The position numbers and the translations under genes were made by a program. Below the pieces are notes generated by a model. It did not search any database, was not told the origin of the DNA, and saw only the letters and a list, made by a program, of their open reading frames with translations. From Zootoca vivipara (Eukaryota), in contig NC_083277.1 of NCBI RefSeq assembly GCF_963506605.1, forward strand, positions 27,404,001-27,468,000: a stretch of 64,000 nucleotides of DNA, given 5' to 3'. Below, piece by piece: positions 17,515-59,222 of this stretch (its first letter is position 1; every line of letters starts with the position of its first letter).

Positions 17515-17614
17515 CCTTCAGGTATCTGAAGAGGTGTGCATGCACACGAAAGCTCATACCAAAATATAAACTTAGTTGGTCTTTAAGGTGCTACTGAAGG
17601 ATTTTTTTTTAATT
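17515..17614 (+). mobile_element. Solo Penelope pseudo-LTR mini-copy with hammerhead ribozyme
   Basis: Reverse complement of the 3' end of the Penelope at about 51645-51731; flanking direct repeat TTCCTTATT. Confidence 0.88.
17521..17560 (+). ncRNA. Minimal type I hammerhead ribozyme
   Basis: GGUAU-CUGAAGA-G-GUGUGCAUGCACAC-GAAAGCUC^-AUACC: 5-bp stem I, intact core, palindromic stem II, palindromic AGCU stem III. Confidence 0.82.
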
Positions 17615-17812
17615 TTCCTTATTGTTGTCATAGCTTGTGTTTATTCTGCTAGCCAGCTATACTGTTGGTATCTGTAGGCTGGCATTCCCAGAGTTTTAAA
17701 AGTTTCAGCAGTACTTAAGCTCTATGATTTAAGCTCTGGAGTTTTGAAGTTCAGAAGATGTTTTTGGCCATAGAATTTAGCTGCTGTTTTGAGATCTTTA
17801 CGAGGACCTAAG

Positions 17813-18247
17813 CGGTGGTGAACGGTGCCACTTGGCTGCCCAGGGCGGCACCCCCTGGTGGTGGGGCATCGCTCCGCAGTGACATCACGACACACGAAGC
17901 GTGCGCCAGGACAAGACAGGACAGACAGTGCATGTCCGCACATGTGCAGTCTGTCCAGGTTGGCGCTGCTGCTCTGCTCAGCCGGCGCGTTCAGCCCGCG
18001 GTGCTCAGCCAGTGGCGCTTGGCCGGTGCTCTGCTTCAGAGCACACTACGGAGAGGGTTGTTGAGCAGCAGTTTGCTGCCCAGCAACCCACTCCGTAGCA
18101 CGCTCTGCTTCTTCTTGCTCGGTGGAGGAGGCGAGGGGCGGGCCAGGGGCCGGGGGTGCTGCCCTTGCACACTGCCCTCACGCTGTCCTCGCCAGAGTGG
18201 AGCTAGGGGCGGATCGCCCCCTTCGCCCCTCCCTTGCTACGCTCCTG
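17813..18247. mobile_element. GC-rich hAT MITE (CAGTGGCGTAGC-type)
   Basis: Perfect TSD GACCTAAG; 3' end CCCTTGCTACGCTCCTG as in 8358-8535. Confidence 0.85.
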
Positions 18248-19184
18248 GACCTAAGACACTATTCAGATGATTCCCCTACTCACCAATAATGTACATTCCC
18301 TCTTCTGTGCCCCCATATATATATATTTCTGATGGCACAACTGCGTCCCAGTCCCAAAAATAATCTTTGCAAGTGCTCACCAGGTGAATTGACCTTGTCA
18401 ATTTTGAGTCACGACAGACTGCAAGAAGAGAGAATGTATGGGTTGGATGGCAGTGATGTGTGCATGAGCATGAGAGAGAGAGTGAGGGGGGGTAGTGGCA
18501 AAGGCAGGTTCAGAGATTGTATTGTGAACAAATATGTCAATGAATTGTCATTGGTCTCCCCCCCCCCTTTTTTGCAGAAAAATAGATTTTAAAGCCAGAA
18601 GGAACTGATGATTAGTTTCTCTGACCTTCTGAATAACTTGAGTTATAGAGATTTTCCCAGTAACAACTGTATTATGCCCAGACATCTAACTAAACTGCAG
18701 AATAACTTTGGGAGAGTGTAAATTCACTATAAAAACCCTTCCAGTAATGGAAAATTTACAATATTCTTCAGGAGTATGTTTCATAATTACACATCTCTGT
18801 TCTGTTGAGATTTTGTTACTCCCTCTCTCTGTTTTGTTCTCTAGGGAAACCTGCAGAGCTATTTAACTGGGCCATGCAAGCCTATTTGCTTACTATTGTT
18901 TTTTCATAATGATGTTAATTGGACTGCTGAACTCTGTAGTCCCATTTTGATTCTACCGTGATCTTATGGCTTGCCTGTGTTAATATATTCACTGTCTATC
19001 CGTTGTTGATTATTTTTAATGTTATCATTTTTTTTTGCTTTGAGTTATTTGGTTTTTATTATTGTTATATATTTGCTTAATTTACATAGCACTATGTGCT
19101 TTCATGAGAGATGGGATATGAATCTGATACAGAAATAAAATGAAAATACATTGAATTAAATGTTGGCTTCAGAAATATTTAGAT

Positions 19185-19330
19185 ATAGCTCAATGGCTAG
19201 AGCATGAGATTCTTCATCTCAGGGTCATGGGTTCGAGCCCCATGTTAGGCACAAGTTTCCTGCAGTGCACGGGGTTGGACTAGATGACCCTCATGGTCCC
19301 TTCCAACTCATACAATTCTATGTTTCTGTG
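19185..19330 (+). mobile_element. tRNA-Lys(CTT)-derived SINE with CR1 3' tail
   Basis: Head ATAGCTCA..TAGAGCATGAGA.TCTT.ATCTCAGGGTC.TGGGTTCGAGCCCCA resembles tRNA-Lys; tail GGTTGGACTAGATGA...CCCTTCCAACTC...TTCTATG shared with CR1. Confidence 0.8.
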
Positions 19331-19653
19331 TAGCACAAATTCATACAAGATAGAGTTCTTTTCCTGAAGGGGCATACAGTAGTTGCTTCAGTTACAGATG
19401 GAGTCCATCAAATACACCAGATTAATTGATCCATCACTTGCTTTTAAATTGATCTAGCAATCTAGTTATTTCAAACCAATTTACATAGATCCAGAACCTC
19501 ATTATAAATGCCCTTTTGTCAGTACTGGAGCAGTGTGAGATAACATAAAGTTTAATAAGAATGTGCTATTTAATAAAAGTTACCATGCTCATTGGAAGAG
19601 AAGTCTACTTTTATTTCTTTTCCTCTGTTTTCCATTACAGTAATGACACAGTA

Positions 19654-56197: not shown

Positions 56198-57008
56198 TTA
56201 TCCAGTGTGAAGAAATTACACTAATATGACCCAGCCCAAATGTAAGCAAGGTCACCTGATGCCTGTGCTTCATTCATTTTTTAAAAAGAGCCCTCGTAAG
56301 GTTTATCTCTAAAACTTAGGCAACAACCACCACCAAGAAATTAACCACATAAGAGGCTGTTCTAGGGGCCAATTACCAAAATTTACAGTCACAAACCAAC
56401 ACCATCCGTAAAGAAGAGCGGCAAAAATAAAGAATGGATTTGCCTCTCTTCACCCACCCACAAGACAGGGAAATAAAGGACCTTGACAGAACAGTGGATA
56501 TTAGTGTTAGTGAACGACTGCAACATGTCTTAATATAATCTCAAACTCTCATCACAAATCAGCTTAGAAGCAGCATATGAGCTGGCCTGCAATGACTTGC
56601 GCACCCTTGCTGGCTCTTATCTGCTAAATTGCTTTGCGGCAACCTCCCTCCGTGCCCTTGACCACATCTGAAAAGTATTTGTCTCCGGCTTCCAAACAAT
56701 ATGACAAGTCTACTTTGTGGCTTCCAAATATCTTAGGGTATAATTTTCTTTTAATAGCCACCTTCTTTCCTTGATGCATTTTTCTCCGCAGCTGATGGAT
56801 GACCGAGGACCTAAAATGACTTGGAGACTCCAGCAATATTCATTTATCAAATGAATCCTTCCGCCAAGAATCTAACTAGATAATGGGGACAGAAATATAT
56901 TTTGTAAAAGAACAAAACAACAACACATTGCTGAGTGAATAAAATAGAAAGGCGGAGCGGGGAGGAAAGCGACAAATGAAAATGTTGCTACATAGGTTGT
57001 ATTGTATC

Positions 57009-57704
57009 TAGGAATGGGTGAATCTGTTAATTTCAGTTTCTCTCAGTTTCTCAGTTTCCCAGTATTCACTTCAATTCTCTCCATTTCTGCATGCGTTTAT
57101 GATTACTTTTTTTTTAAGGGCCTCATGAGAATAATCAACATTTTAGTGAAAACATCTCCTGAGATAATCATTTTTGTAAGCATTTTTGACTGATACACAC
57201 ATATTTTGCAAGCAGTTTCCCCTTATATAATAAATTGTGTGTGTTATTCACTAATATATGCATCGAAGAAGAGAAGAAAAAGAGTTTGGATTTGATATCC
57301 TGCTTTATCACTACCCTAAGGAGTCTCAAAGTGGATAACATTCTCCTTTCCCTTCCTCCCCCACAACAAACACTCTGTGAGGTGAGTGAGGCTGACAGAT
57401 TTCAGAGAAGTGTGACTAGCCCAAGGTCACCCAGCAGTTGCTTGTGGAGGAGTGGAGATGCGAACCCGGTTCACCAGATTATGAGTCCATCGCTCTTAAC
57501 CACTACACCTCTCTCGAATGTACACTTTCCCCTAAAACACACATTCTGTGCAAACGGGATATGTTTGGAGAATTGCATTGCAATATTTGGAGAAGTGCAA
57601 ATCTCAAAGCATAGTTGTGTTTGGGTTTGCATATTGTTTTGGAAAGTGAGAATTTTGGTAGGTTTACACTAAAATTCTAACCAAAACAAATTTCTCCATC
57701 TCTA
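57009..57704. mobile_element. Old TAGG(G/A)ATGG-type hAT MITE with SINE insertion
   Basis: Ends TAGGAATGGG / CCATCTCTA; flanks ATTGTATC/GTTGTGTC; related fragments near 7635 and 35205. Confidence 0.55.
57266..57509 (-). mobile_element. Squam3-like SINE
   Basis: Reverse copy of 42188-42428 with (TCT)n-like tail. Confidence 0.8.
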
Positions 57705-58923
57705 GTTGTGTCTAACGGATTCGTATTTGGAAAAGGTGCACTACAAATTTACGTTGATTGATATCAGTGGGTCTATTCCGAGTATGGCATAGTTGGGTAC
57801 AACCAACTGCAGTTGGAGTTCTTTCTGGGTCAGGAAATGAGGAACAGCAATTAACTTCAAAGTGAAGATGTATCATCAAGGCGTATCAACATCCCAAAGT
57901 TCTCCGGTAGTATAGTTAATTCTTAATCCCTTCTGCTCAAGCGGAAGGCTGAAATATTAAACAGCAGATCATTCTTTGCCTCGCAGAGAAGCATGAGCTG
58001 GCGATATCTTGTTCTCTCTTTAAAGGGATCGATTATTCCCCAGAAACTCAGTCAATGGGGAGCGTTATTCAGTATCTTGCCATCCATTTCCAGCCACACT
58101 TTAGTGCCTAAGGGTATTAATTTAAGGATAATATGTATGAGTCAAGCTTCTACACAATGAAGTAGCATGTGTGACTGCCAGAAAACCTCCCTCCAAGAAA
58201 CACCCTGAATGGCACCAACCTTCCGCTTTCGTTCAGCATTGCCAAATGGAGTCATAAAGTTTCTGTACGCTGTAATGAGGCTGGTAACATTTTGAGTGGA
58301 GGGAGTTCAGTTGGTGAACTTCCTCAGCTTGAAAAGGCACAGTCCACTGTGAGTCAACTCCAGACCCATTTCTGGCATCCACCAGGCTAAGGCAAAGAGA
58401 AGCGGGGGACTCCAGGGACTCCTTAAACAGCTCTGCTGAAATACCACCTCCATCGGGGTCTCCATAAACAGTGATATACAGCAGCCCTTGCATCAGTCCA
58501 AAGGAGAGGGAGAAAGATGGGCCTGCAAGGCCTCTCTTTCAGCTCTGTCAAAAGGCCAGCAATCTTTGGTTGCTCCTCTCCTTGAGACCTTCCCATTCTA
58601 GCTAGTCGTTACGAGAACTCTGAAGCTACGAAATAGGTTTCATGGTTTTCTTCTTTCCTTCTCTCTCCCAATCCCTTTCCCTTTTGTATTGTGCCTTTTA
58701 GATTGTAAGCCTGAGGGTGGGAACTGCCATATTCTTGATGTTTGTAAGTTACTCCAGGAACCTTTTTGGGGAAAGATGGGGAGGGGATTGGGTTGAAGAG
58801 TGTGACAACAATGCTTTAAATAAATACCTAAATCAAATTCAGTAGAGGAAACAAACTGGCCTATGAAGCTGGCACAAAGTGCTGCTCCTGAGGATGCTCA
58901 GCAATCTCATTCTCACTGTAGAG

Positions 58924-59059
58924 CAGGCATCCCCAAACTGCGGCCCTCCAGAGGTTTTGGCCTACAACTCTCATGATCCCTAGCTAACAGGACCAGTGGT
59001 CGGGGAAGATGGGAATTGTAGTCCAAAACATCTGGAGGGCTGAAGTTTGGGGATGCCTG
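58924..59059. mobile_element. Palindromic ~136-bp hAT MITE
   Basis: TIR CAGGCATCCCCAAACT; flanks CTGTAGAG/GAGTAGAG; same family as 8733 and 38022. Confidence 0.9.
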
Positions 59060-59085
59060 GAGTAGAGTCAGACAAGTGTTTGTCT

Positions 59086-59222
59086 AGTTACAGGTAGGTA
59101 GCCGTATTGGTCTGCTGTAGTCAAAACAGAATAAAAAGAAAAATCCTTCCAGTAGCACCTTAGAGACCAACTAAGTTTGTCATTGGTATGAGCTTTTGTT
59201 TGTATGCACACTTCTTCAGATA
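59086..59222 (-). mobile_element. Solo Penelope pseudo-LTR mini-copy, hammerhead core decayed
   Basis: Matches 51607-51731; TSD GTTTGTCT; core GAAA changed to AAAA at a CpG. Confidence 0.88.

Follow-up and report, generated by a model that had tools for sequence, protein, structure and literature searches.

Three stand-alone hammerhead cassettes (stubs) in a 64,000-nt stretch of the Zootoca vivipara genome, which constitutes the whole analysed window, are best read as end-pieces of an abundant young Neptune-type Penelope-like element and not as a separate ribozyme parasite. They were probably generated by reverse transcription of the element's own transcript from a priming site within its 5' leader, the cDNA likely running off at the start of this transcript, at the front edge of the hammerhead.

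Solo hammerhead cassettes and their parent element

Positions are numbered from +1, where the 4-bp helix I begins; this base lies 34 nt upstream of the cleavage site (cleavage after +34) and corresponds to window position 51731 (minus strand) and to L032:1851. The three cassettes, their flanking direct repeats of 9, 14 and 8 bp and their common 5' end were found as given in a preliminary description of this DNA. Stub 1 (17515..17614, plus strand; 100 nt) comprises the cassette from +1 to about +93, with a short-type 3' end, and is the only one of the three with an intact ribozyme core, for which cleavage is predicted, as read from the sequence, after 17555. Its homology to the element starts at 17522 (+1); the 7 extra nt before it (17515-17521), enclosed like the cassette by the 9-bp target duplication (plus strand; left 17506-17514, right 17615-17623), are a fold-back piece, nearly the reverse complement of +5..+11. 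Stub 2 (48706..48802, plus strand; 97 nt) has a short-type 3' end, belongs to an older subfamily and carries a mismatch in helix I; its homology begins at -1/+1 (48702-48703), overlapping the last 4 nt of its 14-bp duplication (plus strand; left 48692-48705, right 48803-48816). Stub 3 (59086..59222, minus strand; 137 nt) begins at +2 and has a long-type 3' end with a tail; a core purine of its hammerhead is mutated and stem II has two changes, and its 8-bp duplication lies at 59223..59230, with the other copy at 59078-59085 (minus strand). Identities to the long copy present in the window (87% for stub 2 and 82% for stub 3) indicate that both are older copies. All three onsets (+1, -1/+1 and +2) fall at the first base of helix I, and the stubs, each with its own target duplication, are separate retrotransposition products. 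The length of about 130 nt proposed earlier holds for stub 3 (137 nt), while stubs 1 and 2 (100 and 97 nt) are closer to 95 nt. An Rfam scan of the cassettes matched no family at E<=1, hammerhead families included; the hammerheads were identified from the sequence and its predicted fold, by their core boxes and helices.

The full unit of the parent element is 3,030 bp long, with an ATG at +138. Its complete, intact-looking frame of 901 aa, found in a tandem copy (L032:1988-4693), is a single ORF with RVT_1 and, at its C-terminus, a GIY-YIG domain, both over the Pfam cut-offs. Between RT and GIY-YIG the translation contains C-x4-C-x2-C, a linker that fits Neptune but also Nematis; a cysteine linker at this place is described for Neptune-type elements in the accessible text of PMC8557442. 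Further traits of Penelope-like elements are also present: partial tandems, an inverted 5'-truncated partner and an optional tail of 30-40 bp at one end. The long copy in the window (51606..54296, minus strand) is 5'-truncated and about 327 nt short of the 3,030-bp unit; a target duplication was looked for around it and none was found. On the same strand it retains the remaining RT and GIY-YIG frame (51919..54296; RVT_1 E 2e-12), a TATA-like box starting at -31 (51755..51762), which is a candidate promoter element, a minimal type I hammerhead (+1..+39; 51693..51731; predicted cleavage after 51698) and, between the 3' end positions at about +90 and +130, the optional tail (51606..51640). The cassette follows the ORF; in tandem copies it also forms the 137 nt that precede the next start codon. 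Elsewhere in the genome, one 598-bp array has tandem hammerhead units. The high copy number expected earlier is borne out genome-wide by exact matches to the core (17,000) and to a +49..+79 anchor (19,292).

Distribution of 5' ends

The 5' ends were called against a panel of 117 natural copies. The sample comprised the first 100 matches that the +49..+79 anchor gave in the genome, all from the first 3.5 Mb of one contig; merging the members of one tandem array left 97. A stub was defined by a 5' end at -10..+40; manual censoring was applied to five ends (C-rich tract, one internal deletion), and further ends were censored as 'beyond -60'. In this sample 44 of 97 cassettes were stubs, and the other 53 continued further upstream, with scattered ends. 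The ends peaked at -4..+5; on the ribozyme side the peak had a shoulder, and upstream it fell off sharply. This peak contained 22 ends among 80 cassettes still at risk, i.e. about 15-fold over the upstream background (Poisson P 7e-19), which confirms the earlier claim of a non-random 5' end. The stop rate per nucleotide was 0.031 at -4..+5, 0.013 at +6..+15, 0.004 at -20..-11 and 0.002 upstream. An overlapping core-anchored sample, with cruder handling of subfamilies, gave 42 of 100 ends in -10..+5. Unpaired stubs of the short type (9 copies) and of the long type (9 copies) were both centred on +1, and thus the peak is set by position, not by length. Five of the 97 ends lay at -5..-17, upstream of +1, which counts against a start at +1. 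None fell in +33..+37, at the cleavage site, so the copies do not start there and, as previously proposed, the template carried an uncleaved ribozyme.

An apparent pile at -1 against a single reference was rejected as an artefact of other subfamilies diverging upstream, and another at -12 was an artefact of a fifth subfamily; the 117-copy panel removed both. All-against-all extension was confounded by inverted arms common to copies.

Copies with a tail-to-ORF junction stopped at -14..+1 in 4 of 29 cases (0.4 expected, P 0.0009), and 25 of 30 reached at least 195 nt beyond +1; the idea that full-length copies mostly start at +1 was rejected, as only 4 of 30 do. An origin of the stubs as solo pseudo-LTRs, through recombination of the two repeats in full-length copies begun at +1, is very improbable. 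Such recombination would leave one duplication and a +1 start, and the required full-length copies exist (the 4 of 29), but stubs make up about 45% of cassettes and copies with the junction are scarce (1,299 first-look candidates vs 19,292 anchors); moreover, twin stubs with two short arms and fold-back joints are not recombination products.

A possible, though rather doubtful, explanation of the peak is that the same element RNA, in multimeric or circularised form, was copied up to a structural or protein-bound stop for the reverse transcriptase, and that +1 is not an RNA 5' end. The passage of +1 by 25 of 30 copies exceeding one unit would fit this explanation, as would the recurrence of stops near +1 on the second pass (14% vs 33% on the first; Fisher P 0.054) and the coincidence of the helix I edge with +1. 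In their accessible parts, PMC4209133 proposes circular templates and PMC11167929 describes the lizard hammerhead as protein-assisted. However, a reverse transcriptase moving 3' to 5' reaches helix I first at +35..+38, and no ends were found at +33..+37. Helix I has just 4 bp. Folding of the leader was no more stable than that of shuffled sequences (z -0.7); z -2.4 was reached only by stub 1 together with its fold-back. In addition, the sequence upstream of +1 varies between subfamilies while the TATA spacing is conserved.

Sequence around +1

The TATA-like box begins at -31 in four subfamily clusters and is located within a TA run covering -34..-25 in the fifth (the box is at -31 or -30 across the five). 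Between four aligned subfamily representatives, identity is 10-21 of 23 positions at -23..-1 and 39-40 of 40 at +1..+40. A cap would be expected to leave an extra G at -1, which few of the unselected copies showed. In four of five subfamilies there is a pyrimidine run with AG at -3/-2, as would suit a 3' splice site at +1, comparable to the D. virilis Penelope intron that ends at helix I (reported in the accessible text of PMC4209133). We consider a splice site most unlikely: the commonest subfamily has no AG, yet its stubs end at +1, no common upstream exon was found between duplication and cassette, and no GT..AG joint landing at +1 was present among the joints listed.

3' ends, paired copies and haplotypes

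Two 3' end positions, at about +90 and +130, are used by stubs and long copies alike, and 22 of 23 head-to-head pairs combine one short with one long 3' end. Target duplications of 8-15 bp were found in 21 of 56 unpaired copies. Twelve loci on 10 contigs (10 with one tail haplotype and 2 with another) have a common joint: the two arms stop precisely at +1, and a 6-nt fold-back connects them. Palindromes with a 4-nt loop at +1..+4 were found at 5 of 30 loci chosen for their likeness to stub 1, and repeated short pieces, each ending at most 2 nt from +1, at several such loci, selection by similarity meaning that no frequency can be derived from these fold-back sets. Each of four common linker-plus-tail haplotypes occurs in both stubs and long copies, within a small sample with few informative sites. 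One haplotype contains relatively more stubs (14, with 8 longer copies, vs 25 and 44).

One complex palindromic joint is common to three separate insertions, which may reflect re-mobilisation of a stub.

RNA reads and a postulated separate ribozyme RNA

Three RNA runs of one study with the same species label, all fragmented 150-nt paired libraries, were analyzed. RNA depth over the cassette was far above that of the flanks, and an RNA of 130 nt would be lost from such libraries. In the three runs, neither read starts nor read ends piled up at +1 or at the cleavage site, a result uninformative for a short or rare RNA. Of the cassette reads, 92%, 85% and 47% ran on into unlike sequence, on both strands. 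In two runs, 333 and 171 reads passed upstream through the TATA-like box, which, like the missing pile of read starts, counts against a start at +1.

The preliminary description had explained the stubs by a defined RNA of about 130 nt, copied in trans as a Penelope-dependent SINE or retrozyme. Such an RNA, which would come from source loci of its own, now appears unlikely. The sharp 5' peak, the separate target duplications, the RNA depth over the cassette, the stub-rich haplotype and the complex joint shared by three insertions would all agree with this explanation. On the other hand, 53 of 97 cassettes are longer, both 3' ends are common to long copies and full-length copies have the same 5' hot spot (4 of 29 junction copies stop near +1). 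Stubs are without a TATA-like box, and the cassette reads mostly continue into unlike sequence on both strands. As for the hallmarks of a SINE, the four common haplotypes are mixed, none of them being specific to stubs (again for few copies and informative sites), no tRNA, 5S or 7SL head was found by the Rfam scan of the cassettes, and the stub is wholly collinear with its parent. Retrozymes are characterized by at least two consecutive hammerheads in tandem and by a unit processed at the cleavage site; the stubs in the window are single and none of the 97 ends lies at that site.

Proposed origin of the stubs

In the preferred reading, priming inside the leader, a promoter in the upstream pseudo-LTR would start the RNA at about +1, and this RNA would hold the priming region twice, as a front and a rear copy. 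Priming at the front copy would thus give a run-off product of 90-130 nt, and priming at the rear copy would give ordinary 5'-truncated copies. Each target strand would prime one cDNA, one with a short-type and the other with a long-type end, and the cDNA ends could fold back or anneal at +1, producing head-to-head twins. Since no cleavage is predicted for a minimal hammerhead on its own, the leader would survive. A single linear RNA begun at +1 is insufficient for the 25 of 30 junction copies that extend far past +1, and therefore multimeric, circular or jumped templates would also be needed. According to the accessible text of PMC11167929, a Penelope protein from a lizard nicks the two target strands and extends each of them, and two internal start sites, used on uncleaved RNA, define the tail. 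The D. virilis Penelope promoter, which is TATA-less and starts upstream of the intron (PMC2377424), counts against the preferred reading.

For the regeneration of pseudo-LTRs in Penelope-like elements no obvious mechanism is known (PMC2377424). More speculatively, and with low confidence, a retrovirus-like strong-stop step could be considered: a leader cDNA of 90-130 nt, extended to the 5' end of the RNA, would either insert and give a stub or move to the identical 3' repeat of the RNA, regenerating pseudo-LTRs and more-than-unit copies without circular RNA, and the stubs would be a trapped intermediate. In the open papers searched, neither a link of strong-stop or strand transfer with Penelope-like elements or pseudo-LTRs nor a mapping of stub 5' ends was found. 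The element is known and its class is ordinary, and it is the start-site reading that was not found in the literature searched. If +1 is the transcript start, some 8,000-9,000 young stub arms (45% of 19,292, extrapolated from one region) record the RNA start, together with per-strand cDNA priming at different start sites and the joining of cDNA ends. With an intact-looking 901-aa frame and a very young family, the start-site, structural-stop and strand-transfer models are testable in the published in vitro assay.

Comparison with known systems

As in the metazoan Penelope-like hammerheads of Cervera and De la Pena 2014 (PMC4209133), the ribozyme is a minimal type I motif with a short helix I, a long helix II and a palindromic helix III. 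In its accessible text, that study reports that most motifs are dispersed single copies, probably tied to truncated elements, and that a single minimal motif failed to self-cleave; it describes neither a pile of 5' ends where helix I begins nor a TATA-like box at -31. The system shares with PAc, an Anolis carolinensis element of the Poseidon type (Frangieh et al. 2024, PMC11167929, accessible text), two internal RT starts, a tail of 30-40 nt, cutting and extension of both target strands, uncleaved RNA as the main template and no RNA ends at the cleavage site. PAc belongs to the Poseidon clade and its ORF starts inside the hammerhead, whereas the frame of the Zootoca element runs from +138 and has a Neptune-type cysteine linker; the same text contains no analysis of the 5' ends of genomic copies.

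Penelope elements of Adineta vaga (Arkhipova et al. 2013, PMC3846280) likewise have head-to-head inverted repeats, a tail at one end only, 8-10-bp duplications, solo pseudo-LTRs and a putative TATA box with initiator in the pseudo-LTR. Their palindromes were attributed to self-priming with antisense RNA or DNA as template (PMC3846280), while the joints described here, in which the partner arm usually exceeds the +1 arm, fit fold-back of cDNA at +1 and a second, RNA-templated arm. Non-LTR retrozymes (Cervera and De la Pena 2020, PMC7229834; Li et al. bioRxiv 10.64898/2026.07.22.740005) are also hammerhead-bearing, non-coding and kin to Penelope pseudo-LTRs. They are tandem, with at least two hammerheads, whereas the stubs are single or inverted pieces of 90-137 nt, fully collinear with an autonomous element.

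Retroviral minus-strand strong-stop DNA is a short cDNA that extends from an internal priming site to the 5' end of the RNA, within the terminal repeat. The stubs would differ from it in being primed by nicked target DNA and in that the short product itself is inserted.

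Hammerhead cassettes and their parent element

As the preliminary description had it, three stand-alone hammerhead cassettes (stubs), each with its own target duplication (9, 14 and 8 bp, respectively), are present at 17515–17614 (+), 48706–48802 (+) and 59086–59222 (−). With positions numbered from the base that opens hammerhead helix I (+1 = window 51731, minus strand = L032:1851, in a locus of the same genome), element homology begins at +1 in stub 1 (100 nt; preceded by 7 extra nt), at −1/+1 in stub 2 (97 nt) and at +2 in stub 3 (137 nt). Their identities to the window's long copy are 97%, 87% and 82%, respectively, and only stub 1 has both the core and helix I intact. 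Cleavage is predicted to occur after +34; an Rfam scan of the cassettes gave zero matches.

The fourth cassette is the terminal part of that long copy, a 5′-truncated Penelope-like element (51606–54296, minus strand). A tandem copy adjoining the window defines a 3,030-bp unit, whose 901-aa frame contains RT and GIY-YIG domains (both over Pfam cut-offs) plus a cysteine linker; as the start codon lies at +138, within the tandem the cassette doubles as the next unit's 5′ leader. The parent family is young (best 40 places 99–100% identical), and the suggested high copy number was borne out genome-wide: the core has 17,000 exact matches and the +49..+79 anchor has 19,292, against 0 for reversed control sequences in the same searches. 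In three runs, RNA depth was 0–4 over the 5′ part of the ORF (L032:1988–2500) and hundreds to thousands over the cassette, which indicates that transcripts of full length are a rarity in these samples.

The window also carries repeated RT-like LINE 3′ fragments (14669–15424, 43369–43932, 51487–51606 and 60506–60668), which resemble BovB; one adjoins the long Penelope copy on its 3′ side, and a Pfam search of one such fragment gave no match. A palindromic repeat family (38048–38131, 8760–8845 and 58950–59033), probably a MITE, has a sub-threshold Rfam mir-5408 score on both strands, a partial tRNA match over the Rfam threshold (19186–19243) probably represents a tRNA-derived SINE head, and diverged 96-bp tandem units at 31699–31937 also form a long inverted repeat.

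Distribution of cassette ends

The 5′ ends were called, by comparison with 117 natural upstream contexts, in the first 100 genome matches to the +49..+79 anchor, i.e. the first 3.5 Mb of contig C1. Merging one four-unit array left 97 cassettes (44 stubs and 53 longer copies); those with an end unresolvable past about −50 to −60 were censored at −60. The stop rate per nt at risk was 0.0008 at +36..+48, 0.003 at +26..+35, 0.004 at +16..+25, 0.013 at +6..+15, 0.031 at −4..+5, 0.009 at −10..−5, 0.004 at −20..−11 and about 0.002 farther upstream. The peak at −4..+5 is 15-fold above background and skewed toward the element interior, and the pattern is real and non-random. The ends do avoid the cleavage site, as had been noticed (none there among the 97). 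A continuous spread of ends, named beforehand as the finding that would speak against a discrete RNA, holds for roughly half of the copies, which end throughout the 3′ UTR/ORF, but a real peak stands on top of it.

The 3′ ends group at about +85..+98 (short-type) and +125..+134 (long-type), two positions matching the two RT start sites, plus tail, of an Anolis element (PMC11167929). In unpaired stubs both types are centred on +1, so the 5′ end is set by position, not by product length. Target duplications of 8–15 bp were found in 21 of 56 unpaired copies. Among 23 head-to-head pairs (one or two may be neighbours by chance), 22 combine one short-type and one long-type 3′ end; in twin stubs the short arm mostly extends to +1, while the long arm is joined at +8..+31.

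Origin of the boundary at +1

The stubs very probably derive from the element's own RNA. Four of the 30 copies with a tail-to-ORF junction stop at −14..+1 (0.4 expected), which ties the hot spot to that RNA; another stops at +92. The other 25 run at least 195 nt further upstream and therefore require multimeric, circular or jumped templates. Such a boundary might also come from a stop imposed by structure or protein if the RNA were longer or circular; we consider this rather unlikely. The reading that we favour, as moderately probable, is that RT would prime in the front one of the two leader copies and then run off at the transcript start. The five subfamily clusters have the cassette in common but unlike upstream sequence; in each, a TATA-like box is located at −31 or within a TA run spanning −34..−25. 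In the three RNA runs no transcript start was seen at +1, and some reads cross the box. Recombination as the source of the stubs and a splice site at +1 both have very little probability.

Solo motifs, tails, inverted partners and junction palindromes, like a putative TATA box in a pseudo-LTR, have been described before. No 5′ pile at helix I was found in the passages searched (PMC11167929, PMC4209133, PMC3846280, PMC7229834, PMC8557442, PMC2377424, bioRxiv 10.64898/2026.07.22.740005); genomic ends are mapped in the supplements of PMC11167929, which may bear on the novelty of such a pile.

Comparison with SINEs and retrozymes, and the joints at +1

The proposal of a discrete, SINE- or retrozyme-like RNA copied in trans was not upheld: all four common linker-plus-tail haplotypes occur in stubs and long copies alike, the stubs are without the candidate promoter (the TATA-like box), and most cassette reads run on into unlike sequence. 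A separate short RNA is very unlikely, and the stubs, which fit the definition of neither SINEs nor non-LTR retrozymes, are a by-product of an ordinary element, not a new mobile RNA; their value lies in giving a record of the Penelope mechanism that can be tested.

Among four loci (L268–L271; G000:C19:354321, 484107 and 1014536, and C18:5954685), three twin-stub insertions (L268–L270) with unlike flanks and swapped long and short arms share one identical complex joint, which suggests that a palindromic stub can now and then be re-copied; the remaining locus, L271, has flanks in common with L269. A four-unit tandem array with 598-bp spacing (L154; G000:C1:2777592–2779653), each unit comprising about −386..+216 of the parent element with its hammerhead, is compatible with a non-LTR retrozyme, as defined by tandem units, that arose from the parent Penelope family.

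With stub 1 as a query, 40 places sharing its fold-back joint were found; of the 30 examined, 5 form a palindrome with a 4-nt loop, and others contain repeated short pieces that end at or near +1. A second search yielded 12 loci on 10 contigs, with two tail haplotypes, in which both arms end exactly at +1. Both sets were picked by similarity and show the precision of the joint, not its frequency. Such joints at +1 would be the expected residue of a polymerase that had reached the end of its template. In one locus (L250:1350–1510), at least 5 consecutive short pieces each end at +1 or not more than 2 nt away; they resemble repeated re-priming at a template boundary and are reminiscent of telomerase repeat addition.
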